A stretch of DNA of 64,000 nucleotides from an uncultured Verrucomicrobiota bacterium (GTDB lineage: Bacteria > Verrucomicrobiota > Verrucomicrobiia > Limisphaerales > J093). A model generated the notes under the pieces. The model saw only the letters and a list, made by a program, of their open reading frames with translations. It was not told the origin of the DNA and did not search any database. Shown here in pieces: positions 47,123 to 60,557 of the stretch. Position 1 is the stretch's first letter, and each line of letters starts with the position of its first letter. The stretch is taken from positions 5,516 to 69,515 of the forward strand of contig CAYXPA010000001.1 in the NCBI GenBank assembly GCA_964466945.1, read 5' to 3'. The translations under genes were made by a program, and so were the position numbers.

Positions 47123-48091
47123 ATGGCCGAGACATCACCAAAGCAAGCGACCTTGTTGGACGAACTCCGGGAAGAGCTCCCGGTGGCGTGGCGGGCCATT
47201 CCGCGCAAGGGGATGTTTTTCGGGCTCTTGGCGGTGTGGCTGGCGGTGTTTCATTTTCTGGGCAACCCGACGCTGGGTTACGTGGCCACGCCCTCGCTGC
47301 TGGGCTGGTTGAACATGATGTACAACCGGCCGGGCTCGGAGGACGGACACGGGCAGTTGATGCCGCTGGTGGTGCTCGGGTTGTTGTGGTGGCGGCGGGA
47401 GCGGCTGGCGCGCGTGCCCACCGAGGTGTGGGGGCCGGGTTTGTGGTGGTTGGCCGGGGCGGGGGTGTTGCACTGGCTGGGGTTCGCCGTGCAACAGCCG
47501 CGGGTGTCGGTGGTGGCGTTGTGGCTGGGCGTGTACGGCCTGGTGGCTGCGGTGTGGGGCCGCGCGCTGGCCCGGGCGATCGCGTTTCCTTACGTGCTGC
47601 TGATTTTTTGCGTGCCGCTGGGCGATCTGGCCGATCCGGTGACAGTGCCGTTGCGGCGGTTTTCCACGGATGTCACGGTGGTGATCGTGCGGCATCTGCT
47701 GGGCATCCCGGTGTTGCAGGAAGGGGTGCAGTTGATTGACCCCAAGGGGACCTACCAGTACGAAGTGGCGGCGGCGTGCAGCGGGATCAACAGCCTGCTG
47801 ACGCTTCTGGTGCTGACTTCGGTGTACGGCTTCGTGAGTTTTGCCTCGCCCTGGAAGCGGCTGGCGATGGTGGCCCTGGCGCTGCCGCTGGCGGTGGCGG
47901 GCAATGTATTGCGGCTGGTGAGCATCATCGTGGCGGCGGAGGGGTTCGGTCGGGGAGTCGGGGAGTTTGTGCATGAGTGGTTCGGGTTTGTGACCTTCGC
48001 GCTGGGGTTGGTGGTGATTTTCGCGGTGGGCAATTGGTTGCAGGAACCCCGGGGCGAGGCAGCGGGGCCGGCGGTTTCCCAAGCGACATGA
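47123..48091 (+). CDS. exosortase (EpsH/Xrt family)
   Basis: Polytopic membrane protein with the catalytic context AAACSGINSLLTLL (Cys), AVAGNVLRLVSII (Arg) and EFVHEWFGFV (His). Confidence 0.85.
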   Translation: MAETSPKQATLLDELREELPVAWRAIPRKGMFFGLLAVWLAVFHFLGNPTLGYVATPSLLGWLNMMYNRPGSEDGHGQLMPLVVLGLLWWRRERLARVPTEVWGPGLWWLAGAGVLHWLGFAVQQPRVSVVALWLGVYGLVAAVWGRALARAIAFPYVLLIFCVPLGDLADPVTVPLRRFSTDVTVVIVRHLLGIPVLQEGVQLIDPKGTYQYEVAAACSGINSLLTLLVLTSVYGFVSFASPWKRLAMVALALPLAVAGNVLRLVSIIVAAEGFGRGVGEFVHEWFGFVTFALGLVVIFAVGNWLQEPRGEAAGPAVSQAT

Positions 48092-48813
48092 ACCGGGGCA
48101 CGACCATCATCGTGGGAGCGCTGGCCATTATGGGGCTGACGGCCGGGGCCGTGGCCCACCTCAAGTACCACCAGCGGCTGGGCGAGCCGGGGGTGCGCTG
48201 GGAGGCGAACGGGGCCGGGTTGCGGGGGCGGATCGTGCTGCCCGAGCGGGTGCTGGACTATGTGTCCACGAACGTCGAGCCGGCGCAGGTCGAGTGGGAC
48301 GTCCTGCCCAAAGACACCAGTCTGGCGCGGCGCTTGTACCGGGCGCCGGACGGGTTCGAGGTGTTGCTGGGGGTGGTGTTGATGGGGACCGACCGCACCA
48401 GCATCCACAAACCCGAGTACTGTCTGACTTCGCAGGGCTGGCAGATCGTGGAGCGGGCCACCACGCGCCTGGGCGTGGACCAACCGCATCCGTACACGCT
48501 GCCGGTGCGGCGGTTTGTCACCCGGCGGCTGGGCCAGTTGCCCGGCGGCCGCCAGGTGCGGTGGAGCGGGGTGTACCTGTTTTGGTTTGTGGCCGACGGC
48601 CGGCTCACGGCCAGTCACGCCGGGCGGATGGGGTGGCTGGCGTGGGACCTGATCCGGCACGGGGTGATGCCCCGTTGGGCGTATGTGAGCGCGTTTGTGG
48701 TGTGTCCGCCCGGCCAGGAAGACCGCGCCACGGCGCGGGCCGGGGAGTTTTTGCGGGCGGCGGTCCCGCTGTTTCAGACCACGGCCGGGCCGCGCGAGGA
48801 CCGGCGGCCGTGA
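48088..48813 (+). CDS. exosortase-associated EpsI-family protein
   Basis: N-terminal TM helix, then DRTSIHKPEYCLTSQGW (the H-x-PE-x-C...GW EpsI motif). The ATG overlaps the exosortase stop (ATGA at 48088-48091). Confidence 0.75.
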   Translation: MNRGTTIIVGALAIMGLTAGAVAHLKYHQRLGEPGVRWEANGAGLRGRIVLPERVLDYVSTNVEPAQVEWDVLPKDTSLARRLYRAPDGFEVLLGVVLMGTDRTSIHKPEYCLTSQGWQIVERATTRLGVDQPHPYTLPVRRFVTRRLGQLPGGRQVRWSGVYLFWFVADGRLTASHAGRMGWLAWDLIRHGVMPRWAYVSAFVVCPPGQEDRATARAGEFLRAAVPLFQTTAGPREDRRP

Positions 48814-48913
48814 ACGTCCCGCCGTGAAGTTCCCGACCGACCGGAAAGAAGTTTGCCCTCGCGCGGCGCGGGCTGGCAGGATGGGCGGACTTTGACGCGT
48901 TTGCGCGAAATCC

Positions 48914-50311
48914 ATGCTGCGCCAACAGCGAGACCTTCAAACCCAGGTACAGATGGTGGTGGACGCCGGGCTTTTCGGCCTGAGCTTCTATCTGGCGCAC
49001 GCCATCCGGGAACGCTGGCCCTTCGAGTTGTTCGGCGGCACGCGGGAGATTTTCGACTTTTCGTACTACTTCTGGCTGTTTGTGGTGATCGTGCCGCTGG
49101 CGCCGCTGGTGTTGCGGTTGAGCGGATTTTACCGGCGGCCGTGGTTGCCCTCGCGCTGGCAGACGGCGGCGGTGTTGCTGCGGGCGTGCACGACGCTGGT
49201 GCTGGGGCTGGTGGTGCTCTTGTGGATCATGCGCGAGACCGGGGGGATCGCGCGCTCGGTGCTGATTTACTTCGGCGGGATCAGCTTCGCGCTGGTGTTT
49301 GCCAAGGAGGAGTTGCTGTTGCGCTGGCGCACCAGCCGGTTGGGCCGGGCCCGGCTGCAGCGGCGCTTGATCCTGGTGGGCACGCCGGAGGAGACCCGGC
49401 AGGTGCGGGAGGAAATCCGGCGGGACCCGAGCCGGCAGTTTGAGATCGCGGCGGAGGTTAACCTGAACGTGGAGCCGGTCGAGCGGCTGGTGGAATTGAT
49501 GCACGAGCACTCGCCCAACGGCGTGATCATGGCCGCGCAGCACACCTACTTTGGCCAGCTCGAACAGGCCATCGCGGTGTGCGAACGCGAAGGGGTCGAG
49601 GTGTGGGTGATCGCGGACTTCTTCAAGCCGCGCATCTCGAAGACGACCGTGGGGGTGTTTCAGGGCCGGCCGGTGCTGGTGTACCGCTCGGTGCCGGCGA
49701 GCACCTGGCCGTTGCTGGCCAAACAGATGCTGGATTTTTGCGGGGCGCTCGTGTTGCTGATCCTGACCGCGCCGCTGATGCTGCTGGCGGCCGTGGGCAT
49801 CAAGCTGACTTCGCCCGGCCCGATCCTTTTCCGTCAGGAACGTTGCGGGCTGAACGGGCGGCCGTTCACGATGTTGAAATTTCGCTCGATGGTCAGCGAT
49901 GCCGAGCAGCGCAAGCACGAGCTGGAGGCGCTCAACGAAATGAACGGGCCGGTCTTCAAGGTGAGCAACGACCCGCGGGTCACGCCCTTTGGCCGGTTTT
50001 TGCGCAAGTACAGCATTGATGAGCTGCCGCAGTTGTTCAACGTGCTGGCCGGGCAGATGAGCCTGGTCGGGCCGCGGCCCCTGCCGGTGAACGAGGTCAA
50101 GCGGTTCGACGACCCCGCGCATCGCCGCCGGCTCAGCGTGAAACCCGGCCTGACCTGCCTGTGGCAGATTCGCGGGCGGAGCGACCTGCGGGATTTCCGG
50201 GAATGGGTGCGCCTGGACCTCGAGTACATTGACAACTGGTCCCTGGGCCTGGACCTGAAAATCCTCCTGCTCACCATCCCGGTGGTCCTGCGCGGGCAGG
50301 GGGCCAAATGA
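48914..50311 (+). CDS. polyprenyl glycosylphosphotransferase (exopolysaccharide priming sugar transferase, WbaP/EpsB-like)
   Basis: Four to five N-terminal TM helices and a central Rossmann-like region. The C-terminal bacterial sugar transferase domain shows [39 protein letters not shown] and KPGLTCLWQ. Confidence 0.9.
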
Positions 50312-50351
50312 ACCGGCCGGGCCGACCGCGATTGTTTTTCAGCCGCCACGC

Positions 50352-51350
50352 ATGAAAACGAAAATCCGCAAACGCCCGGTCCGGAGCCAAAGCCCCCCGG
50401 TGTCGGTGGTGACCGGCGGGGCCGGGTTTCTGGGCTCGCACCTGGTGGACCTGCTCCTGGCGCGCGGGCACCGGGTCATTGTCCTGGACAACCTGGTTAC
50501 CGGCACGGTGGACAACATTGCCCACCATGCCGGCGACCCGAACTTCCGGTTCATCCATCAGGACGTGACCGAGTACCTGTTCCTGGACGGGCCGGTGGAT
50601 TACATCTGGCACTTCGCCTCGCCGGCCAGTCCGGTGGATTACCTCGAGCTGCCCATTCAGACCCTCAAGGTGGGCTCGCTGGGCACGCACAAGGCGCTGG
50701 GTCTGGCCCGGCACAAGGGCGCCCGGTTCCTGCTGGCCTCAACTTCAGAAGTGTACGGCGACCCGACGGTGCATCCGCAGCCGGAGACCTACTGGGGCAA
50801 CGTCAACCCCATCGGTCCGCGGGGTTGCTACGACGAGGCCAAGCGGTTCGCCGAGGCCCTGACCATGGCGTACCACAACGAGCACGGGTTGGAGACGCGG
50901 ATTGTGCGCATCTTCAACACCTACGGGCCGCGGATGCGCATGGGGGACGGTCGGGTGGTGCCGGCGTTCATCGCCGCCGCGCTGCGCAATCAGCCGCTCT
51001 CGGTCTTCGGCGACGGCACGCAGACGCGCAGTTTTTGCTATTGCTCGGACCTGATCGAGGGGGTGTACCGGCTGATGATGTCCGACTACCACCTGCCGGT
51101 GAACATCGGCAACCCGGAGGAACTGACCATGCGCGAGTTCGCCGAGGCGGTGATCCGGGCGGTGGGGTCGCGCAGCCGGATCGTGTACCGGCCGTTGCCG
51201 CAAGACGACCCCAAGCAGCGCCGGCCCGACATCACGCGAGCACAGAACTTGCTAAAATGGAACCCGCAGGTTCCCTTGGCCGAAGGCCTCGAGAAGACCA
51301 TCGAGTGGTTCCGATCGCGCCTCGGGGCTCGGTCCAAGACTGCCCGCTAA
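50352..51350 (+). CDS. UDP-glucuronate decarboxylase (UDP-xylose synthase), extended SDR
   Basis: [32 protein letters not shown] (YxxxK) and [10 protein letters not shown]; the overall pattern is UXS-like. Confidence 0.85.
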
Positions 51351-51484
51351 AACATCGCCGTGAAACGACGTTTGTGTTTGACCCGCAGGGTCAATTCCAG
51401 TAACCACCCTGCACCATCTCGACGTTGTGCCGGGCCGGGCCGAGGCGTAAGCTGGTCCCGGCGGGCGCAGCCCGGGCGGAAACC

Positions 51485-53431
51485 ATGCTGAATTCGTCGA
51501 AATCCTTTCTGTGCGTTGATTTTGGCGCCGGCACCCTGAAGGTTGCCGAGTTCGACGCCACTGAGGCGGGGGCCTTGCGCTTGCTGCGGTATGCGGTTCG
51601 CCCCCTGGGCCTGGCCGGCAGCCAGGACGCGGCACGGGACGGGGTGGTCCAACGGGCCTTGCAGGAAATCATGTCCGGCAAGACCTACACCGCCAAGCGC
51701 TGCAACGTGTCGGCGCCCGGGTTCCAGACCTTCTCGAAGTTCATCAAGCTGCCTCCGGTGGACGCCTCGAAGGCGACGCAGATCATCCAGTACGAGGCGC
51801 AGCAGAACGTGCCCTTCCCGCTTGAAGAGGTGGTGTGGGATTACCAAATCCTCGGCGCCCTGCCTTCCGGCGAACTGGAGGTGCTCCTGGTCGCCATCAA
51901 GACCAGCCTGGTCGAGGGCATGTTCAAGGCCGCCGAGTCGCAGGGGTTGCGCCTGGACCTGGTGGACGCCAGCCCGGCCGCGCTGGCCAACGCCTTTCGC
52001 TACAACTACAGCGACATGGAGGGCTGCTCCATGTTGCTGGACATCGGCGCCAAGACCAGCAACGTGCTGTTCTTCGAGAAGGACAAGGTTTACGCCCGCA
52101 CCATCAACATCGGCGCCAACGCCATCACCCAGGAATTTGCGGCCGAGGCCAAGCTGCCTTTCGCCGAGGCCGAGAAGATCAAGATCGCCGAAGGTTTCGT
52201 GAGCCTGGGCGGGGCCTACGAGGAACCGGAAAACCCCCGCCAGGCGGCCATCTCGAAGATCGCGCGGCAGGTGATGACCCGCCTGCACATCCAGGTCAAT
52301 CAGACCATCCAGTTTTACCGCAGCCAACAGGGCGGCTCGGCGCCGCAACGGGTGTTCCTGGCCGGGGGCGCCTCGATCATGGCCTACACGGCCCAGTTCT
52401 TCGCCGAGAAGCTCAACCTCCCGGTGGATTACTTCAATCCGTTCCGCAACGTCGAGATTGACCCCTCGGTCAACATCGAGGAGCTGGCCAAGGTCGCCCA
52501 CGCGTTTGGCGAGGTGGTGGGGTTGGGCCTGCGCAACCCGGCGCAGTGCCCGATCGAGCTGAACCTCATCCCCAAGACCATCCTCAAGCGCCAGCAGCTC
52601 AATCAGAAAAAACCGTACTTCATCGCTGCGGCCATCAGCCTCATTCTGGCCGTGCTGGCCATGGGGGTGTTCTTCGACCGCGTGGCGGCGGTCAAGCAGC
52701 AGGCCATTACCGAACGCGAACCCAAAGTGGCGCGCCTCCAACAAAAGGCCGACCAGCTCCGGGCGGCACTCAAACAACGCGACGAGGCCCAAAAGCTCGT
52801 GGACCAGTACACCGAGTGGCTGGAGACCCGGTTTTCTTGGGGGGACGTGCTCACCGAACTTCGCAACGCCCTGGTCAACACCGAGCGGGTGACCACCCAG
52901 CCGGGCATGCAGACCGCCGTTTGGGTCGAGCGCATGAGCGCCGAAAACCTTCAAGCGCCTCCCGAGGAGCAACAGGAAGAAACCGGAACCCGGCCCATGA
53001 TGATGGATTGGCGCATGATGCTCCGCTACGGCATCGGTCTTCCGCCCGAGGTCATGCGAAAACTCCGGGAAATGCAGGCTTCCGGGGAGCTGGACCAGGC
53101 CGCCCAAAGTGGTGGCGGGGAGGCCGGGGGGGCGGAAGGAGAGGCCGGAGGGGGCATGGACATGGGCGGCGCTCCGGCAGCGCCGAGCCGGCCCAACACC
53201 AACGAAGTCTCGATTATCAACCTCACCTGCCGGGCCATCAGTTGGAGCCGGGCCGACCCCCGGGCCGACCGTCAACTGGTGGACACCCTCGCCAACGTGC
53301 TCCTGCAAAGCCCGCTTTTTGTGGGCGGCACCAACGGCACCCGGCTTTCCGGGCAGATGCGACCGGACGAAGGCACCAATACCTTCCGGTTTGATGTCAA
53401 GCTCGTGCTCGCCAAGTCGATCAAACTGTAA
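51485..53431 (+). CDS. pilM: type IV pilus assembly PilM (actin-like ATPase) fused to a PilN-like TM/coiled-coil/periplasmic module
   Basis: N-terminal ~370 aa: FLCVDFGAGTLKVAEF..., VDASPAALANAF, LLDIGAKTSNV and FLAGGAS are the PilM/FtsA-like motifs. Next come KKPYFIAAAISLILAVLAMGVFF (TM), a coiled coil, a Met-rich/acidic-Gly insertion and a C-terminal alpha/beta domain. Start is ATG 51485. Confidence 0.8.
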   Translation: MLNSSKSFLCVDFGAGTLKVAEFDATEAGALRLLRYAVRPLGLAGSQDAARDGVVQRALQEIMSGKTYTAKRCNVSAPGFQTFSKFIKLPPVDASKATQIIQYEAQQNVPFPLEEVVWDYQILGALPSGELEVLLVAIKTSLVEGMFKAAESQGLRLDLVDASPAALANAFRYNYSDMEGCSMLLDIGAKTSNVLFFEKDKVYARTINIGANAITQEFAAEAKLPFAEAEKIKIAEGFVSLGGAYEEPENPRQAAISKIARQVMTRLHIQVNQTIQFYRSQQGGSAPQRVFLAGGASIMAYTAQFFAEKLNLPVDYFNPFRNVEIDPSVNIEELAKVAHAFGEVVGLGLRNPAQCPIELNLIPKTILKRQQLNQKKPYFIAAAISLILAVLAMGVFFDRVAAVKQQAITEREPKVARLQQKADQLRAALKQRDEAQKLVDQYTEWLETRFSWGDVLTELRNALVNTERVTTQPGMQTAVWVERMSAENLQAPPEEQQEETGTRPMMMDWRMMLRYGIGLPPEVMRKLREMQASGELDQAAQSGGGEAGGAEGEAGGGMDMGGAPAAPSRPNTNEVSIINLTCRAISWSRADPRADRQLVDTLANVLLQSPLFVGGTNGTRLSGQMRPDEGTNTFRFDVKLVLAKSIKL

Positions 53432-53434
53432 GGT

Positions 53435-54538
53435 ATGGATTGGATCAAAAAGAACCTCGGGCTGGTCATCGGTGGCCTGCTGGTCCTGGCAGGGCTGGGC
53501 GCTTCCGGCTATTACCTCTATACCAAAATCCAGCACAGCAACGCCATCAGCGCCCAGTTGGAGGAGCAGGACCAGAAGCTCCAGTCCCTCATGCGCATGA
53601 GACCCCACCCGGGCAACCGCAAGGTGGACAACATCGCGCTGGCCAAGGAACAGGAAGCCCAGTTGACCAATTTCGCCGCCCGCGCCCGCGCCCAGTTCGC
53701 GCCTGTGCCCTATCCCACCAACATCGAGAGCAGCAACTTCGGCTTGCTCCTGACCGACACCCTCGACCACCTGCATCGCCGGGCCCGAATGACGGGAACC
53801 AAACTGCCCGACGGCTACGCGTTCACCTTTGCCGCGCAAAAGCAGGCGCTGTCCTTCGAGCCCAAGAGCATCGAGCCCCTGACCCGCGCGCTGATGGAGG
53901 TCAAGACCCTGAGCGAAATCCTGCTCGATGCTCGCGTGATCGAGCTCGAGCGCATCCGCCGACCCTCCGTTGCGGCCAATGACACGCCCGGCCTGACCCT
54001 GGGCGGTGGCCCCTCCGACTACTGGACGCGCAAGCCGGTCACCAACGACCTGGCCGTGATCATCCCTTACGAACTGGTCTTTCGCGGTTTCAGCAGCGAA
54101 TTGCAGGCCTTCATGGAAGGTTTGGCCCGCAGCCCCCACAACTTCCTGCTCAAAAATCTCATCGTGGACACTGGGGAGACCAACGAGGTGGACATGTTCG
54201 CGCCGGACATGGGCCTGGGCGGCGACGAGGGCAACATGCCCCGGATGAGTCCGCAGATGCTGATGATGCTCCGCTATGGCTTGCGGCCCGGGATGCGTGG
54301 CATGCCCATGATGCCCCAGCCGACCGATGCCGCCACGGAGGCGGCGCGGGCCGAGGCCAACATCATCGTCCGCGAAAAACCCTTCCGCGTGACGGCCTGG
54401 GTGGATGTGGTGCGCCTGCGCGATCCCGCCGAGGCGGCCGCCAGCCGTACCCGGTCCCGCCGGGGTCCGGCCGCGCCCGGCGCCGAGAGCACCGGCGCCG
54501 AAACCGCACCGGAGGCCTCGACGGCGGCCGCATTCTAG
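53435..54538 (+). CDS. PilO-like pilus-assembly membrane protein, Amuc_1100-like architecture
   Basis: MDWIKKNLGLVIGGLLVLAGLGASGYYLY (TM), a coiled coil, and a periplasmic domain (IPYELVFRGFSSELQAFMEGLARSPHNFLLKNLIVD ... EKPFRVTAWVDVVRL). The domain is interrupted by a Met/Pro-rich loop. The resemblance to Akkermansia Amuc_1100 comes from my recollection of that sequence and was not aligned. Confidence 0.5.
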   Translation: MDWIKKNLGLVIGGLLVLAGLGASGYYLYTKIQHSNAISAQLEEQDQKLQSLMRMRPHPGNRKVDNIALAKEQEAQLTNFAARARAQFAPVPYPTNIESSNFGLLLTDTLDHLHRRARMTGTKLPDGYAFTFAAQKQALSFEPKSIEPLTRALMEVKTLSEILLDARVIELERIRRPSVAANDTPGLTLGGGPSDYWTRKPVTNDLAVIIPYELVFRGFSSELQAFMEGLARSPHNFLLKNLIVDTGETNEVDMFAPDMGLGGDEGNMPRMSPQMLMMLRYGLRPGMRGMPMMPQPTDAATEAARAEANIIVREKPFRVTAWVDVVRLRDPAEAAASRTRSRRGPAAPGAESTGAETAPEASTAAAF

Positions 54539-54541
54539 CCT

Positions 54542-55357
54542 ATGGAGTTGCTCAAGAAGCATTACGAGAAGCTGATCCTGAGCGTGGTCCTGCTGGGGTT
54601 GGCCGTGGCGGCGGGGTATCTGCCCTTTGAAGTGGCCCGCGTGCGGGAGCGCCTGGCGGAAGTCACCACCGCCATCGAGGACGGCAAGGTTGAACCCCTC
54701 AAACCACTGGACCTGACCACCAACGAGGCGGTGCTTCGCCGGGCTACCTCGAAGGTCGAGTTCGCTTTTGGCAAAGGTCCACACGGCCTGTTCAACCCGG
54801 CGGGCACCTGGCGCAAGGGCACGGGGCCCGGCGGCTGGCCGCCCATCCCGCCGGCCCCATCCGGCGTGGAGGGTCTCGTCGTGACCAGCATTACCCCGCT
54901 CATGCTGAAGGTGGAATTCCAGGGCGTCTCTCAGGGTAGCAGCGCGGCCTTCGGACTGCGCTACCGGTTCTACATCCAAAACCAGGCCTCGACCAATTCC
55001 ACCCTCGCCCGGGGCCGCATCCTGAACCTGGCCACCAACGACAAGCCCGGTGCGGCCGACCCGCTTTTGATCAAGGATATCATCGGCGCGCCCGAGGACC
55101 CCGACGCCATTCAGTTACAGCTCACCGACGCGCGCACCGTCATCACGGTCACCAAGGACAAGCCCTATACCGAAGTGGCGGGTTACTCGGCCGACCTGCG
55201 GCACGAACGCGAGGGCCGTAATTTCACGCGGCAACGCCCCGGCGCCAAACTCACCATCGCCGGCGCCACTTACAATGTCGTTGCCATCAGCGAGCGCGAC
55301 GTTACCATCGAGGACGACAAGACCAAACGCCGCACGGTCATTGCGCTGAACCGGTGA
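54542..55357 (+). CDS. membrane-anchored hypothetical protein of the pilus-assembly cluster (PilP position)
   Basis: N-terminal TM (LILSVVLLGLAVAAGYL) and a beta-rich periplasmic part, located between the PilO-like and secretin genes with 3-28 nt gaps. Confidence 0.5.
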   Translation: MELLKKHYEKLILSVVLLGLAVAAGYLPFEVARVRERLAEVTTAIEDGKVEPLKPLDLTTNEAVLRRATSKVEFAFGKGPHGLFNPAGTWRKGTGPGGWPPIPPAPSGVEGLVVTSITPLMLKVEFQGVSQGSSAAFGLRYRFYIQNQASTNSTLARGRILNLATNDKPGAADPLLIKDIIGAPEDPDAIQLQLTDARTVITVTKDKPYTEVAGYSADLRHEREGRNFTRQRPGAKLTIAGATYNVVAISERDVTIEDDKTKRRTVIALNR

Positions 55358-55385
55358 GGGGTCGCTGAGTGATCTGGATTGCTTT

Positions 55386-57905
55386 ATGTCTTCCGTTTCG
55401 AGAAAAACCACGCCCATGATTCGTTTCGCCTTCACCCTGCTGGCCGGCGCGGTGGTGTTGTCGGGCCCGCTGCCCGCCCGGGCCGCGCAACCGGACGCCG
55501 CCGCCCTTGCCGCCGAAGAAGCCGTGCGCCGGCAGGAACTGACCATCCTCCTGCGCAAAACCCTCCAAGAAGCGGCCGACGTGCGCGCGCGGGATGACCT
55601 GGCCAACGCCGTGCGCCTCTATGAGGAGTGCTGGAGCCTGGTCCAGCGCATCGGCGATGCCAGCATCGAGGCCGAGCGCAAACAAACCATCGCCGGGTTC
55701 ACCGAGGCCTACCTCACCCAGGCCCGCCGCTCCTATGCCAGCGCCGATTACGAGGAGGCCAACCGGCAACTCGCCCGGGTGTTGCGCGTGGACCCGCGCA
55801 ACGACGAAGCGCAAAAACTCAAGGCCCGTGTGGACCAGGCCCTCGAGGAACTCAAAGGGCGCGTGCCCAGCAAGGAAATCGTGGCCCAACTGCCCGAGGC
55901 GGCCCAGACGCGCACCGATGCCGCCACGCTGGTCCAGGATGGCAAGCTGCTTTATGAAATGGGGAAACTGGACGAGGCCGAGGCCAAGTTGCGCAAGGCC
56001 CGCGAGCTCGATCCTACCAACCGCGCCGCCCCCTACTACCTGACCCTGGTTCAAGAGGCCCGCTACTCTCAGGATGCCGTCAAGCGGGAAGTTATGGCCC
56101 GCCAGAAAATGGTCGAGGTCGAGCAGGCTTGGAATCCACCGCTGGCGCGGGAGAAAATGCCGCCGGGCAACCCATTTGCCCGCACCAACACCGTGCACAC
56201 CGGCCCGGGGCGGCGGATGATTTACGCCAAGCTCGACAAAATCCGGCTTGACCGGGTCGAGTTCCCCGGCGTGCCCTTGAGCGAAGTGGTGGCGTATCTG
56301 GACACGGAAGTTCGCCTGCGCGACCCGGACAAACGCGGCATCAATTTCATCCTGGCTCCCACCGTGGATTCGCAGGCTCCGGCTCAACTTGGTGTGCCTG
56401 GCCTCACCACGTTCGATCCGACGACCGGCGCGGCCGTACCCGCCGTCCCCCAGCAGGAGCAATTCGAGCTCGCCGATGTCGTGATCAAAATCTCGCCCCC
56501 GTTGCGCGACGTACGCCTGGCAGACTTGCTTGACGCCGTCATCAAGGTGGCCGACAAGCCGATCAAGTACTCGGTCGAGGAATACGCGGTCGTGTTCAGC
56601 AAAAAGACCCCGGAACCTCAGCAGCTTTTCACGCGCACTTTCCGGGTGAACCCGAACACGTTCGTGCAGGGCTTGGAAGGGGTGTACGCCATTGACTACT
56701 CGAGCGTCCTGGGCGGTGGTGGGTTCGGTGGAGGCGGTTTTGGTGGTGGCGGCTTTGGCGGCGGCGGTTTCGGCGGGGGTGGTGGGTTCGGTGGTGGTGG
56801 GTTCGGTGGCGGCGGTTTTGGCGGTGGCGGCTTCGGCGGCGGGGGCTATGGCGGCGGGGGGTTGACCATCGGACGCGTAACGATTGGCGGCGGCTACGGA
56901 GGCGGCGGTTTTGGCGGGGGTGGCTTCGGGGGTGGTGGTGGCTTCGGCGGGGGTGGCTTCGGGGGCGGCGGCCTGGGCGGCGGCGGCCTGGGCGGCGGCG
57001 GCCTGGGCGGCGGTGGCTTCGGCGGCGGTGCCGGCGGATTGGGCAGTGGGGGGACGCCCACCGGCGTGGCCGGGTCCACGTTGATGTCGTACGTCAACGA
57101 ATTGGTGCGCGCGTACTTTGTGGCCGCCGGGGTGGACCTGGGCGGGCCCAACATCCTGGGTCAGGGTTTCGGCGGGGCAGCCGGTGGCGCGTTTCCGGGA
57201 GCGGCCGGTGCGGGCGTGGGCTTCCAAAACGCCCAGGGCAAGGCCCTGTTCTTCAACGACCGCACGGGCATCCTGCTGGTGCGGGCCACGCTCGAGGACC
57301 TGGACATCATCGAGCAGGCCATTCAGGCGCTGAACTTCACTCCCGACCAGGTGACCATCGAGGTCAAGTTTGTCGAAATCGGCCAGGACGATGCCAAGGC
57401 CCTGGGTTTTGATTGGTTCCTGGGCAACTGGAACATGGCTGGCGGCAACCTCGGGCTCTCGGGCGGGACGGCGCCTTCTTATGCGGGCGCTCCTTCCGCC
57501 GCCAATCCGTACGGGGTGTTCCCCGGCAACTTCGGTGTTCCGGCCTTTGCCCCCAATCCTTCGACGGATCAGTTGATCACTTCCGGTCTGCGCGGAACCG
57601 AGATTGGCGGGACGGCCATCCCGACCCTGGCCACGCTGACCGGGATCATGACCGATCCCCAGTTTCGCGTGGTCATCCGCGCCCTCGAGCAACGGGGCGG
57701 GGTGGACATCCTCTCCGCGCCCAAGGTGACCACGGTCAGCGGCCGCCAGGCGCAGATTCAGATCATTGATCTCCAGACCATCGTCTCCTACAACCAGACC
57801 GGGGGCATCGGGGGCGGAGTGGGCACCGTGGGCGGAGTGGGCACCGTCGGAGGCGGCGTCGGCGCTGTGGGCGGCGGTGGGGTCGGGGTGGGCGTGGTGC
57901 AGTAA
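55386..57905 (+). CDS. secretin, N-terminal polypeptide: signal peptide, TPR region, N-domains with Gly-repeat insertion, and the first strands of the secretin domain
   Basis: Signal MIRFAFTLLAGAVVLSGPLPARAA, TPR-like helices, and N-domain patterns (ILLVRATLEDLDIIEQAIQALN; VTIEVKFVEI..DDAKALGFDW). The secretin-domain start is FRVVIRALEQRGGVDILSAPKVTTVSGRQAQIQI. The ORF ends in a Gly/Val tail and TAA 57903-57905. Confidence 0.8.
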   Translation: MSSVSRKTTPMIRFAFTLLAGAVVLSGPLPARAAQPDAAALAAEEAVRRQELTILLRKTLQEAADVRARDDLANAVRLYEECWSLVQRIGDASIEAERKQTIAGFTEAYLTQARRSYASADYEEANRQLARVLRVDPRNDEAQKLKARVDQALEELKGRVPSKEIVAQLPEAAQTRTDAATLVQDGKLLYEMGKLDEAEAKLRKARELDPTNRAAPYYLTLVQEARYSQDAVKREVMARQKMVEVEQAWNPPLAREKMPPGNPFARTNTVHTGPGRRMIYAKLDKIRLDRVEFPGVPLSEVVAYLDTEVRLRDPDKRGINFILAPTVDSQAPAQLGVPGLTTFDPTTGAAVPAVPQQEQFELADVVIKISPPLRDVRLADLLDAVIKVADKPIKYSVEEYAVVFSKKTPEPQQLFTRTFRVNPNTFVQGLEGVYAIDYSSVLGGGGFGGGGFGGGGFGGGGFGGGGGFGGGGFGGGGFGGGGFGGGGYGGGGLTIGRVTIGGGYGGGGFGGGGFGGGGGFGGGGFGGGGLGGGGLGGGGLGGGGFGGGAGGLGSGGTPTGVAGSTLMSYVNELVRAYFVAAGVDLGGPNILGQGFGGAAGGAFPGAAGAGVGFQNAQGKALFFNDRTGILLVRATLEDLDIIEQAIQALNFTPDQVTIEVKFVEIGQDDAKALGFDWFLGNWNMAGGNLGLSGGTAPSYAGAPSAANPYGVFPGNFGVPAFAPNPSTDQLITSGLRGTEIGGTAIPTLATLTGIMTDPQFRVVIRALEQRGGVDILSAPKVTTVSGRQAQIQIIDLQTIVSYNQTGGIGGGVGTVGGVGTVGGGVGAVGGGGVGVGVVQ
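56712..57053 (+). repeat. in-frame 15-bp tandem array encoding about 19 GGGG[F/Y/L] pentapeptides within the secretin gene
   Basis: The 114 codons read GGGGF x8, GGGGY, GGGGL, TIGRVTI, GGGY, GGGGF x4, GGGGL x3, GGGGF.... The DNA is imperfect ggcggNggNggcttc units. Confidence 0.9.
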
Positions 57906-57941
57906 GTTCCACTGGCTTTTCAATCTCGAACGAACGCAGAC

Positions 57942-58553
57942 ATGAAAATCGAACGCGTTTTGGCAACCCTCGGCTTGGTCGCGGGCCTCGGCATGTGGGG
58001 CGCGCGGGCGCAGGTGGTTCAACAGGCCGCGGCAACCCCGACCATTCAGCCCACCACCGTGCCCGTGCCCATCGGGCCGACCTTGGACGTGATCCCGCAC
58101 GTCTCGGCCGACGGCTATACCATCCAGCTCAATCTGCTGCCCACGGTGACCGAGTTCCTCGGTTACGACGACCCCGGCCAGTTCCGCGCGGTGGTGGGCA
58201 ACCTCGCCGCGCCGGTGCCGCTGCCGCGCTTTCGCATCCGCCAGGTCGTCACCAGCTCGATCGTCTGGGACGGCCAGACGGTCGTTTTGGGCGGCCTCAT
58301 TTCCGAGCGTGTGGCCAAGCGCAAGGACAAGGTGCCCGTGCTGGGCGACCTGCCGTTGGTGGGCCGGCTCTTCCGCAGCGAGGCCAATTCGAGTCAAAAG
58401 AAGAACCTCGTCATCTTCGTGACCCCCACCATCATTGACCCCCAGGGCAACCGGGTGCACGATGAGAACAACCTGCCGTTTGACCCCACCAAGTTGCCGC
58501 CCCAGACGCCCTTTGCGCCCGTGCCCACCCCGGCGTCGGAGGTTTCCAAGTGA
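57942..58553 (+). CDS. secretin, C-terminal polypeptide: own signal peptide plus the remainder of the secretin beta-barrel domain
   Basis: MKIERVLATLGLVAGLGMWGARAQ (signal-like), then IGPTLDVIPHVSADGYTIQLNLLPTVTEF, RFRIRQVVTSSIVWDGQTVVLGGLI and KVPVLGDLPLVGRLFRSEANSSQKKNLVIFVTPTII. These are the C-terminal hallmark motifs of secretin domains. Confidence 0.8.
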   Translation: MKIERVLATLGLVAGLGMWGARAQVVQQAAATPTIQPTTVPVPIGPTLDVIPHVSADGYTIQLNLLPTVTEFLGYDDPGQFRAVVGNLAAPVPLPRFRIRQVVTSSIVWDGQTVVLGGLISERVAKRKDKVPVLGDLPLVGRLFRSEANSSQKKNLVIFVTPTIIDPQGNRVHDENNLPFDPTKLPPQTPFAPVPTPASEVSK

Positions 58554-58637
58554 AACGCTGTGTGGGCCCAAAGTTGGCTGAAAACTTGCCGTCAACGTTG
58601 AATTCGGGCGGAGCGCGGACCTCCGTCACCAGTTGAG

Positions 58638-60557
58638 ATGCGAGGAATGCAAATCAAATTCTCTCAGGCCCGGCCGTCGGGCGGTTCTCGATTGGGGCGC
58701 GCCACAGTGTTGTTGGCCGCGGCCGCGGTGGCCGTGTTGTCCGGGGTCTCGGTCCGGGCCGACCTGACCCTGTCCCCCCAGGGCACCGAGTACCCGCTGA
58801 GTCGCGGCCTCATCGGCGACCAGACCCGGCCGGCCCTGAGCCTGACGAGCACCGGCGGTTACGTGGTTTGGCAGGACAACGCCGCGGACGGCGACGGCCT
58901 GGGGGTCATGGTCGCCGAACTCAACGCCTCGCTTTCCCCGATCCCGACGCGCATTTTCCGGGTGAACCAGACCACCACCGGGGACCAAGAAGCACCTGCT
59001 GTGGAAGCCCTGGCGGATGGGGGCGCCTTGGTGGTCTGGCAGGGCGGGAAGCAGGGCGAACAAGACATCTGGGCGCGCATCATCCAGCCCGGCGGCACCT
59101 TTCTGGGCGGCGAATTCCGCGTCAACACCTACACCAACGGCCAGCAAAGCTCACCCAGGCTGACCCGCCTTGGCGACGGCAACTTGGTGGTGGTCTGGAG
59201 CAGTTGGAACCAGGACGGCATGTACCAGGGCGTGTTCGGCCAGCGGCTTGCTCCTACAGGGCAAAAGCTGGGCAGCGAGTTTCAGGTCAACGAGTTTACT
59301 GCTTATAACCAGCGCGACCCGGCCCTCACCACCCTGGCCGACGGTTCGTTTGTCGTGGCCTGGGTCAGCGAGCAGCAGCGCTTCGAGAACAGCGTGGACA
59401 TTTTTGCCCGTCGCTACCTGCCCGACGGCACCCCGGCCGGAGGTGAGGTGCGGCTGAACACCACCACCAACCTGTGCGCCAATCCCGCACTGGCCCCGGG
59501 TTGGAACGGCGGGTTCATGGCTGCTTGGAGCCAACGCAACACCACCGAAATCACCAACATGTGGGACGTGGTGATGGGCAGCTACGAGGCCAACGGGAAT
59601 CTCCTGGGCTCGGTGGTGCTGGCCAATCAGTACCGCCCGCACAACCAGTTCTTCCCGCGGATCGCCGCCTTGGGCGGAACCCGCTTGGTGGTCTGGACCA
59701 GCTACGGCCAGGACGGCTCGCGCGAAGGCATCTACGGGCGGCTGGTGGGGCAGTTCGGGCCTCTGGGTGACGAGTTCCTCGTCAACACCGCCACCATCGG
59801 TCCGCAATTGCAGCCGGCGGTGGCCGCCGATGGCGACGGCCGCTTTCTTGTGACGTGGGCCGGTTTCGTGGGCGGAGACGCCAGCTTCGAGATTCTGGGC
59901 CAACGCTACGCGGGCGAGCTGGCCCTGCCGGCCCCCGGCGCGCCGTTGGTCACGGCCCTGGACGCCTACTCGCTGCTGGTGAGCTGGGCCCCGCTGGCCG
60001 GTTATCCCGATTTCGCCGCCTACCACTTGTACGTGGACGGCGCGGCCACGCCCCGGGTGCTGACCGAGAATTTCGTCATCCTCGACGATTTCAACCCGGC
60101 CACCACCCATACCTTCCGGTTGGCGTATGCGCTCAAGGACGGCCGTATTTCGCCGTTGTCCGAGCCGGCGACCGGCCAGACCTGGGGGCGGGACCGGAAC
60201 AACGACGGCTTGCCGGATGACTGGCAGGCCCGTTACTGGGGGCCGAACGCGGCGGCCTGGCCGGTCCCGGGGTTGGACCCGGACGGCGATGGTGCGTCCA
60301 ACCTGGCCGAGTTTTTGGCCGGGACCGACCCGCTGAACCCCGAGAGCGTCTTGCGGGTGTCCATCCAGCCCACCACCGGCGGGTTGTTACTGCAATGGAA
60401 TGCGGTGGCCGGCTCGATTTACCAACTGCAGGCGTCCGCCGACTTGAAGACCTGGTCCGACGCGGCCGGTCCGGCCTTTGCGCCGGGTGACCGCGCGTCC
60501 TCGGTGGTGCCCACCAACGCCGCGACCGTGTATTACCGTGTCATCCGCATCCGGTGA
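58638..60557 (+). CDS. secreted 7-bladed propeller-like repeat protein with FN3, Ca-binding DxDGDG and C-terminal beta-sandwich modules
   Basis: Signal LGRATVLLAAAAVAVLSGVSVRA. Seven repeats of about 50 aa follow the pattern F(R/Q)VN..T.G.Q..P.V..L.DG.FVV.W.S..QDG...G.FG.R. Next come an FN3-like module (LLVSWAPL...YHLYVDG) and DPDGDGASNLAEFLAGTDPLNP. Confidence 0.7.
   Translation: MRGMQIKFSQARPSGGSRLGRATVLLAAAAVAVLSGVSVRADLTLSPQGTEYPLSRGLIGDQTRPALSLTSTGGYVVWQDNAADGDGLGVMVAELNASLSPIPTRIFRVNQTTTGDQEAPAVEALADGGALVVWQGGKQGEQDIWARIIQPGGTFLGGEFRVNTYTNGQQSSPRLTRLGDGNLVVVWSSWNQDGMYQGVFGQRLAPTGQKLGSEFQVNEFTAYNQRDPALTTLADGSFVVAWVSEQQRFENSVDIFARRYLPDGTPAGGEVRLNTTTNLCANPALAPGWNGGFMAAWSQRNTTEITNMWDVVMGSYEANGNLLGSVVLANQYRPHNQFFPRIAALGGTRLVVWTSYGQDGSREGIYGRLVGQFGPLGDEFLVNTATIGPQLQPAVAADGDGRFLVTWAGFVGGDASFEILGQRYAGELALPAPGAPLVTALDAYSLLVSWAPLAGYPDFAAYHLYVDGAATPRVLTENFVILDDFNPATTHTFRLAYALKDGRISPLSEPATGQTWGRDRNNDGLPDDWQARYWGPNAAAWPVPGLDPDGDGASNLAEFLAGTDPLNPESVLRVSIQPTTGGLLLQWNAVAGSIYQLQASADLKTWSDAAGPAFAPGDRASSVVPTNAATVYYRVIRIR

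Follow-up and report, generated by a model that had tools for sequence, protein, structure and literature searches.

Background

Secretins are the largest outer-membrane channels of bacteria, and how their subunits fold, arrive in the membrane and seal the pore is still debated. Among the described members, Amuc_1098 has an N-terminus that resembles tetratricopeptide repeats (TPRs) and BamD, and it is the most abundant outer-membrane protein of Akkermansia muciniphila (PMC4960237). Amuc_1098 (PilQ) is a single chain of 907 amino acids (aa). Here, we describe a locus in which a secretin of this type is probably produced from two genes instead. It lies on 64,000 nucleotides (nt) of DNA from an uncultured Verrucomicrobiota bacterium of the Limisphaerales (assembly GCA_964466945.1, contig CAYXPA010000001.1, positions 5,516 to 69,515 of the forward strand), the whole of which we call the window; all coordinates are counted from its first letter. 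Two adjacent open reading frames (ORFs) on the plus strand, ORF1 (55386..57905, 839 aa) and ORF2 (57942..58553, 203 aa), encode the N-terminal and C-terminal chains of a secretin as judged by translation, Pfam and NCBIfam, and the boundary between them falls inside the secretin domain. The same arrangement occurs in 18 related loci.

Secretins that occupy more than one gene are already known. The 'split secretin' composed of RhcC1 (NolW) and RhcC2 has been described from rhizobial and Pseudomonas syringae type III secretion system (T3SS) clusters of the T3SS-2 group (PMC3574062, PMC3973906) and, like the locus studied here, places secretin function on two (sometimes three) genes in a lineage-conserved manner. 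The two divisions differ in kind. In S. fredii NGR234, Pfam finds only an N0 and a Secretin_N domain in NolW/RhcC1 (234 aa), while RhcC2 (475 aa) contains a complete Secretin domain (positions 1-169 of the hidden Markov model, HMM) as well as N-terminal domains of its own. There, the periplasmic domains have been separated from the barrel, whereas the cut in the window lies within the domain, between HMM positions 41 and 45. The genes rhcC1 and rhcC2 are also about 11.6 kb apart and on opposite strands of pNGR234a, in contrast to the adjacent genes of the window, which are 36 nt apart; and they serve a T3SS, whereas the window locus is pilus-like. We considered whether the window could represent the same kind of split and ruled this out, since RhcC2 keeps the whole Secretin domain. 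A first-pass annotation of the window, made from its letters alone, had supposed that a split of this sort was undescribed for secretins; in view of RhcC1/RhcC2 this is too broad. For a cut inside the secretin domain itself, open-access papers and preprints yielded no example from Verrucomicrobia or any other group, a scope in which absence is no proof. Where gene fission is discussed for type IV filament systems, the genes in question are TadB/TadC.

A further precedent is artificial. The barrel of engineered split OmpA assembles in vivo from two non-covalent fragments, with strand pairing starting in the periplasm (PMC8987393). [quoted passage not shown] By analogy, this precedent suggests that barrels can assemble from two separately exported fragments.

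A secretin domain shared between two adjacent genes

ORF1 ends in ...GVGVVQ, within the secretin domain, and is closed by a TAA codon (57903..57905, plus strand). A 36-nt spacer (57906..57941) without an in-frame stop follows, and the ATG of ORF2 at 57942 is in frame with ORF1, such that a hypothetical read-through product would comprise 839 + 1 + 12 + 203 = 1055 aa. The spacer is AT-richer than its surroundings, with a GC content of 0.50 compared to 0.66 in the flanks. Upstream of the stop, the Gly/Val tract of ORF1 includes a tandem duplication (Tandem Repeats Finder, TRF: 57803-57847, period 18, 2.5 copies, 92% matches). Each of these features had been pointed out in the first-pass annotation and is present as described.

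The division of the domain is evident from the Pfam Secretin model (PF00263). HMM positions 1-41 match ORF1 residues 766-806 with 25.2 bits (gathering score 27.5; E 1.4e-05), and positions 45-169 match ORF2 residues 32-166 with 104.1 bits (E 8.2e-30). When the two translations are joined, the score rises to 120.2 bits (E 8.7e-35), and the complete domain is obtained only from both chains combined. As the model is shared out between the two ORFs in this way, the domain is truly divided, in agreement with what had been read from the letters.

For both pieces, the best NCBIfam model is NF042912, the Amuc_1098 family type IV pilus outer membrane protein (equivalog, 805 positions), with 252.5 bits for ORF1 (model positions 16-377 and a second stretch) and 126.4 bits for ORF2 (model positions 646-804). 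The locus also shares with Amuc_1098 the order of a TPR-like N-terminus followed by a C-terminal secretin domain, together with upstream neighbours that encode a PilM-like Amuc_1101 protein and an Amuc_1100 protein. Homology and context thus point to a secretin of the Amuc_1098 type, albeit one that fails the curated cutoff of the family and departs from its single-chain architecture, being encoded by two ORFs here and in the 18 related loci.

A stop codon in a Gly-rich, repeat-rich and high-GC region could in principle be a sequencing or assembly artefact, and both the 18-nt duplication and a (GGGGF)n array lie nearby; many related contigs break inside the repeat of ORF1. The junction, however, is reproduced independently: a 211-nt segment that contains the TAA and the spacer is 100% identical to the window in contigs of three JGI metagenome samples, so that the stop is the same in three independent assemblies, and in all three samples the ORF2 protein sequence is identical and the upstream gene ends 36 nt ahead of it. 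The layout is present in at least 19 species-level loci from many studies, the window included, and an error would not yield a spacer, a start codon and a signal peptide. We regard the chance of an artefact, one of the explanations listed in the first-pass annotation, as negligible.

No promoter-like or terminator-like site was found between ORF1 and ORF2 in a sigma-70-based scan, which may not suit this phylum. This result fits co-transcription, and ORF2 is most likely transcribed together with ORF1.

Conservation of the split and of the predicted second signal peptide

To place the split in a wider context, we fetched 80 loci from species-representative genomes and used tblastn together with stop-codon walking to find the parts that resemble ORF1 and ORF2. 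The genomes belong to Verrucomicrobiota; for some of the loci, the name given is Limisphaerales, Pedosphaera or subdivision 3. Eighteen loci share with the window an ORF1 stop, a spacer and an ORF2 with a signal peptide, which brings the number of species-level split loci to 19. Their ORF1 chains end in Gly-rich tails of about 15-45 residues, and their spacers measure 16-63 nt. The remaining loci hold a single uninterrupted ORF of about 900-1000 aa, so that close unsplit relatives exist within the same phylum; at the site of the cut, these have a continuous loop of 30-40 residues rich in Gly, Ser, Thr and Asn, without a hydrophobic segment. Three features had been singled out in the first-pass annotation for comparison between orthologues. 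Of these, a stop and a signal peptide recur in the split loci, whereas the spacer is not conserved: neither its length, nor the reading frame, nor its sequence is maintained. In 17 of 18 loci, it has a higher AT content than its flanks.

The start of ORF2 had struck the first-pass annotation as a signal peptide, an impression that is strengthened by its relatives. A search of 5.8 billion proteins with ORF2 returned 1934 relatives, and the best 120 of these are all 177-253 aa long, at identities down to 61%. The predicted Sec/signal peptidase I (SPase I) signal peptide of ORF2 (57942..58010, plus strand) consists of MKIERVLATLGLVAGLGMWGARA, with cleavage expected directly before QVV, and this pattern is kept in 115 of the 120 homologues. 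In an alignment of 29 relatives, Met followed by Lys or Arg precedes about 15 variable hydrophobic residues and an AxA motif, after which the QVV begins; Q24 and V25 are invariant, and from there on conservation is high. The 115 predicted presequences have a median length of 23 aa and a median hydropathy of 2.59 over their best ten residues. Their n-regions are net positive in 111 cases (net charge +1 to +3 in 107), position -1 is Ala in 108, position -3 is Ala, Gly, Ser, Thr, Val or Leu in 106, and position +1 is Gln in all 115; there is no lipobox. On these pattern statistics, from which cleavage is likewise predicted, the presequence would be a classical Sec signal peptide of the SPase I type.

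These comparisons bear on whether the cell might bypass the stop. Under this explanation, read-through or frameshifting would produce a fused and functional secretin of about 1055 aa, and the hydrophobic segment would be an internal part of the gate loop rather than an export signal. The in-frame position of ORF2 in the window, its stop-free 36-nt spacer and the in-frame layout of five other loci are compatible with such a product. Across the 19 split loci, however, ORF2 is in frame 0 relative to ORF1 in six, in +1 in five and in +2 in eight, so that 13 of the 19 would require a change of frame and the in-frame layout of the window corresponds to a one-in-three chance expectation. The spacers are variable and AT-richer, as in non-coding DNA, and we saw in them no conserved context for slippage or read-through. 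In addition, the segment after the ATG varies yet keeps the properties of a signal peptide (such as the Ala at -1), unlike a structural loop, and the unsplit relatives have no hydrophobic segment at the cut site. Mixed frames together with unconserved spacers exclude read-through or frameshifting as a conserved mechanism, and we consider a fused product of this kind very improbable for the window as well.

In a neighbour-joining tree of the shared parts, 18 split loci, including the window, form one clade without any unsplit member (one split locus, L002, was omitted as too gappy). The unsplit sister group carries within its loop the motif VVQQAQ, which is also the motif that opens mature ORF2. 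Ratios of nonsynonymous to synonymous substitution rates (dN/dS) amount to 0.15-0.24 in the C-terminal portion of ORF1 and to 0.18-0.27 in mature ORF2, as obtained from the five closest comparisons and partly from two more, synonymous divergence being saturated for more distant pairs. When proteins are clustered at 90% identity, no fewer than 115 distinct clusters have the same split layout. At 50% identity, the library contains four clusters of this type (P0039, P0125, P0135 and P0144), and its other close relatives consist almost entirely of long single chains. Taken together, the sequences indicate a single ancient gene fission that has been held under purifying selection. Short representatives of about 200 aa in the 50%-identity library (P0150, P0257, P0258, P0188 and others) were considered as candidates for a second, independent fission and rejected; they have no signal peptide and resemble either fragments or products of internal starts. 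No evidence for an independent fission elsewhere was found in this library.

A premature stop within a conserved domain is also the classic look of a pseudogene, in which case ORF2 would be the leftover frame behind a nonsense mutation. The Gln residues at which many ORF1 chains end and their TAA or TAG stops are compatible with such a change as a founding event. The first-pass annotation had named a recent pseudogene among its possibilities. Recent decay is contradicted by a split that is common to a clade whose members have drifted apart to about 60% identity, and in which the two halves are intact wherever both can be seen. The low dN/dS of 0.15-0.27 applies to both halves, canonical secretin motifs are invariant in ORF2, a start codon and a signal peptide have been gained and maintained, and the gene occupies its canonical position in the cluster. 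We find loss of function by this route scarcely credible.

With respect to how the stop arose, the last residue of ORF1 is Gln in 13 of the 19 split loci, and 16 of the 19 use TAA or TAG as the stop codon despite the high GC content. Together with the VVQQAQ of the sister group, this fits a founding nonsense change from CAR (Gln) to TAR, which leaves the origin of the spacer, the start codon and the signal peptide unaccounted for.

Four of the fetched loci (L024, L040, L065 and L071) come from metagenome-assembled genomes (MAGs) that are titled 'Akkermansia muciniphila'. Their secretins group with soil and freshwater sequences of the Limisphaerales type, and that of L040 is of the split type; these look like mislabelled bins.

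Position of the cut in the secretin fold

Solved secretins display the same domain order and motifs as the joined chains, and they allow the cut to be placed in the fold. The Gate 1 loop of secretins has two hinge glycines and reaches the centre of the pore, with a tip that is disordered and variable among secretins (PMC8563730), while the apical region that forms the lip or top gate lies between the QW and ALI motifs (PMC10550240). By sequence and profile alignments, the segment ...ILSAPKVTTVSGRQAQIQIIDLQTIV of ORF1 corresponds to ILSSPSITVMDNGEASFIVGEEVPVI of Vibrio cholerae GspD, which holds Gly453, the hinge residue mutated in structure 5wq9 (G453A). On the other side of the cut, IGPTLDVIPHV of ORF2 aligns with VGIKLKVVPQI of GspD, in which the Gly of 'VGIKLKV' corresponds to G45 of ORF2. 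This places the cut at the tip of the Gate 1 loop, in the inner barrel, where the variable and disordered tip is found in solved secretins. We also considered a cut in the extracellular lip or cap and ruled it out: with the apical region lying between the QW and ALI motifs, the lip belongs to ORF1, upstream of the cut, and GspD Gly453 aligns just ahead of the loop.

Each chain would accordingly supply a defined share of the barrel, as predicted by homology. In ORF1, an N3-like ring domain and the first outer-barrel strands, with the apical or lip region and a helix (57231..57680, plus strand), are recognised from the GspD alignment ('LGVQW ... ALINAV') and from an AlphaFold2 (AF2) model. There follows the opening of the Pfam Secretin domain at HMM positions 1-41, the first inner-barrel strand leading into Gate 1 (57681..57803), which begins VDILSAPKVTTVSGRQAQIQIIDLQTIVSY... 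and aligns to GspD ILSSPSITVMDNGEASFIVGEEVP, a stretch that includes hinge Gly453. The Gly/Val-rich tail of ORF1 (57804..57902) would form the Gate 1 loop's ascending half and is disordered in the AF2 model, where the predicted local distance difference test (pLDDT) is below 50. ORF1 would contribute the N3 ring domain and, for the barrel, the two initial outer strands together with the lip, then the helix and the first inner-barrel strand. Mature ORF2 opens with QVVQQAAATPTIQPTTVPVPI (58011..58073), the putative descending half of the loop up to the second hinge glycine, the invariant G45. Its share appears to be the strand that returns from Gate 1, the hairpin of Gate 2, the rest of the outer strands and the motif KVPVLGDLPLVGRLFRS. 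Compared to GspD and pIV, the Gate 1 loop of the window is longer (about 68 residues against about 29-31), Gly-rich, without the first hinge glycine and physically severed.

The motif KVPVLGDLPLVGRLFRS (58329..58379, plus strand), which aligns to GspD KVPLLGDIPLLGQLFRS, is presumably the amphipathic helical loop (AHL). Among the 29 aligned relatives, its invariant columns (VPxLGDxPxxGxLF) are P132, G135, D136, P138 and G141-E147. The secretin AHL is highly conserved (PMC6532946).

The AF2 model was calculated for residues 616-839 of ORF1 fused to residues 24-203 of ORF2, with an alignment of 51 unsplit representatives. It has a mean pLDDT of 75.5 and a predicted template modelling (TM) score of 0.66, and its long strands reach about 90 or higher. 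The N3-like region is predicted as strand-strand-helix-strand and then a helix, at about 90 or above. The junction (residues 224/225 of the fusion) lies inside a disordered stretch, 192-234, between the strands 180-191 and 235-255. A Foldseek comparison of the model with the PDB returned secretins as all of its top 40 matches (E 6.7e-14 to 9.2e-08, probability 1.00), including GspD of the type II secretion system, PilQ of type IV pili, InvG of a T3SS, pIV, RcpA and BfpB. As a model, the fusion supports a secretin architecture along the joined chain rather than a reconstituted assembly.

It is conceivable that both genes are real but that their products no longer form one barrel, with ORF2 acting, for instance, as a small accessory or plug subunit of variable stoichiometry or ORF1 as a periplasmic scaffold without a complete barrel. 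The gate tips are free, and in one relative the tip is decorated with an extra domain; some split members also have a shorter Gate 2. Separate roles are harder to reconcile with other observations. Wherever a split locus shows both genes, they are direct neighbours, and by homology to solved secretins each half lacks strands for both barrel walls. Residues that contact the other half in canonical secretins are conserved, and the fused chain is predicted to fold as one secretin unit. We therefore consider separate roles unlikely, though the least improbable of the four alternatives to a functional secretin assembled from both chains.

The Gate 2 region itself is presumed to lie at 58170-58250 (ORF2 residues about 78-100), where the window has ..PGQFRAVVGNLAAPVPLPRFRIRQ.. 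in place of the ..IIAQGGAGGTVGGSIRASVALPRLRVRQ.. of unsplit relatives. The window and most split members have about 9-10 residues fewer here than the unsplit relatives and a few split members, a difference that could be a co-adaptation of the second gate loop.

A proposed two-chain protomer

We consider it probable that the locus encodes a genuine, functional two-gene secretin that has become evolutionarily fixed in a verrucomicrobium of subdivision 3 (Limisphaerales/Pedosphaera type), where it would serve as the outer-membrane channel of a type IV pilus-like system of the Akkermansia kind (Amuc_1098-1101). This reading builds on what is observed: how the genes are arranged and how far this arrangement is conserved, the selection acting on each half, the pattern of the signal peptide and the place of the cut. 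The first-pass annotation had leaned toward a genuine split from the spacer and the export signal; the 19 loci, their grouping in one clade, the dN/dS values and the signal-peptide pattern of the relatives give that preference a firmer footing.

Several points weigh against this reading. The relatives are all metagenome-assembled, and no cultured carrier of the split was identified. The curated NF042912 cutoff of 750 bits is missed by each piece and by their sum. The first hinge glycine of Gate 1 is not conserved, with an Ile aligned to GspD G453, and the exact loop boundaries are consequently approximate. The Foldseek TM-scores are only about 0.3, at an rmsd of about 25 Å, for a model that is an artificial monomeric fusion; a value this low would be expected of a monomer model of an oligomeric protomer. 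Lastly, the signal-peptide call for ORF2 derives from pattern statistics, and the expression of both chains, their cleavage, their co-assembly and a change in gating are things that we infer.

We hypothesize that the ancestor was one gene of about 900-950 aa, that a single cut fell within its long Gly-rich Gate 1 loop, and that the locus thereby gained a stop codon, a short spacer of non-coding DNA, a further start codon and a second Sec signal peptide. From one transcript, both chains would be translated, and each would be exported by Sec through its own signal peptide, which is then cleaved. ORF1 would end as a free Gly-rich tail, and mature ORF2, cleaved after AxA, would begin with QVV. The chains might then pair in the periplasm by beta-sheet complementation, through the strands of the Gate 1 hairpin and the inner and outer sheets, and the resulting heterodimers would be the protomers of a multimeric, double-walled barrel of the usual kind. 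Since both new ends would belong to the gate tip, which points into the lumen on the periplasmic side and is the least ordered and most variable region, neither end would need to cross the membrane and the fold should be little disturbed. Our confidence in this specific picture of co-assembly is somewhat lower than in the two-gene secretin as such.

More tentatively, and with considerable doubt, we raise the possibility that this is the first natural outer-membrane barrel protomer made of two separately exported chains cut inside the barrel domain, and that its gate consists of free-ended, Gly-rich, flexible tails that are more compliant or differently regulated and have been kept by selection. 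If true, it would offer a natural system for the folding, pairing and insertion of secretin subunits and for the part that chain continuity plays in gating. More generally, a long-lived split at the tip of the sealing loop would mean that continuity of the Gate 1 chain is dispensable, that in this lineage the halves must meet in the periplasm after separate export, and that a signal peptide can arise in the middle of a gene. The locus may thus serve as a natural counterpart to the engineered split-OmpA experiments, with free termini that provide a handle for labelling or manipulating the gate.

Other parts of ORF1 and the gene neighbourhood

ORF1 more probably starts at Met11 (55416), as in the JGI gene call, which would give a chain of 829 aa. 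From this start, a signal peptide is predicted at 55416..55484 (plus strand), read from the sequence as MIRFAFTLLAGAVVLSGPLPARA with cleavage before AQ. Several weak Pfam TPR matches at residues of about 95-223 mark a TPR-like N-terminal region (55668..56054), and a (GGGGF)n low-complexity linker (56712..57028; TRF period 15, 20.5 copies) follows. The linker, whose units vary as (GGGGF/Y/L)n, lies between the TPR-like N-terminus and the N3 domain. The contigs of nine loci (L001-L007, L011 and L015) start 0.1-1.5 kb upstream of ORF2, so that the assemblies seem to break in this part of ORF1. Further downstream, the TIGR02517 GspD model aligns with its positions 295-450 to ORF1 residues 613-793, and Pfam Secretin_N has no match in ORF1 at E <= 0.1.

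In one MAG (Verrucomicrobiota MAG SPRUCE 250; L007:690-1027, JBEKGJ010000049.1), a split-type ORF1 runs on past its Gly-rich tail. The extension comprises a domain of the Peptidase_S74 'chaperone of endosialidase' family (PF13884, E 1.3e-10, which exceeds the gathering score) and about 45 aa of coiled coil. Next, in a different frame, comes ORF2, complete with a signal peptide. Peptidase_S74 is a self-cleaving intramolecular chaperone of the phage-tailspike type and is unexpected on the gate loop of a secretin; an additional domain at this place is what would be expected of a truly free C-terminus.

The genes upstream of the secretin, all on the plus strand, identify the locus as a pilus-like cluster of the Akkermansia type. 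Its first gene (51425..53431) is PilM-like and belongs to the Amuc_1101 family (NF045709, E 1.5e-147; TIGR01175 pilM, E 1.2e-42; Pfam PilM_2). An Amuc_1100-family pilus-like protein follows (53435..54538), with an NF038287 match at E 1.5e-14 that is below the curated cutoff and a match to Pfam PF28028 Amuc_1100 in JGI data. The next gene (54542..55357), directly upstream of the secretin, encodes a 271-aa protein that is also called as a gene in JGI contig L085 and has no Pfam or NCBIfam match. Downstream of ORF2, at 58638-60557, lies a gene for a 639-aa protein with a signal-peptide-like N-terminus and a weak match to the Amuc_1099 family and bacterial TSP3 repeats at residues of about 545-570; a homologue follows ORF2 in the JGI contigs as well.

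Two long ORFs on the minus strand, 51347-54979 (1210 aa) and 55338-58595 (1085 aa), overlap the pilus genes. Their translations are rich in Arg, Gly, Ala and Pro, and the GC content of the window is 67.8%, which marks them as stop-free frames rather than genes. Upstream of the pilus cluster, the region 47123-51350 holds a PEP-CTERM/exopolysaccharide module that adjoins the pilus genes. It encodes an exosortase (XrtA/EpsH type; E 8.7e-45) along with two enzymes, a polyprenyl glycosylphosphotransferase (E 2.9e-118) and a sugar epimerase/dehydratase that is NAD-dependent.

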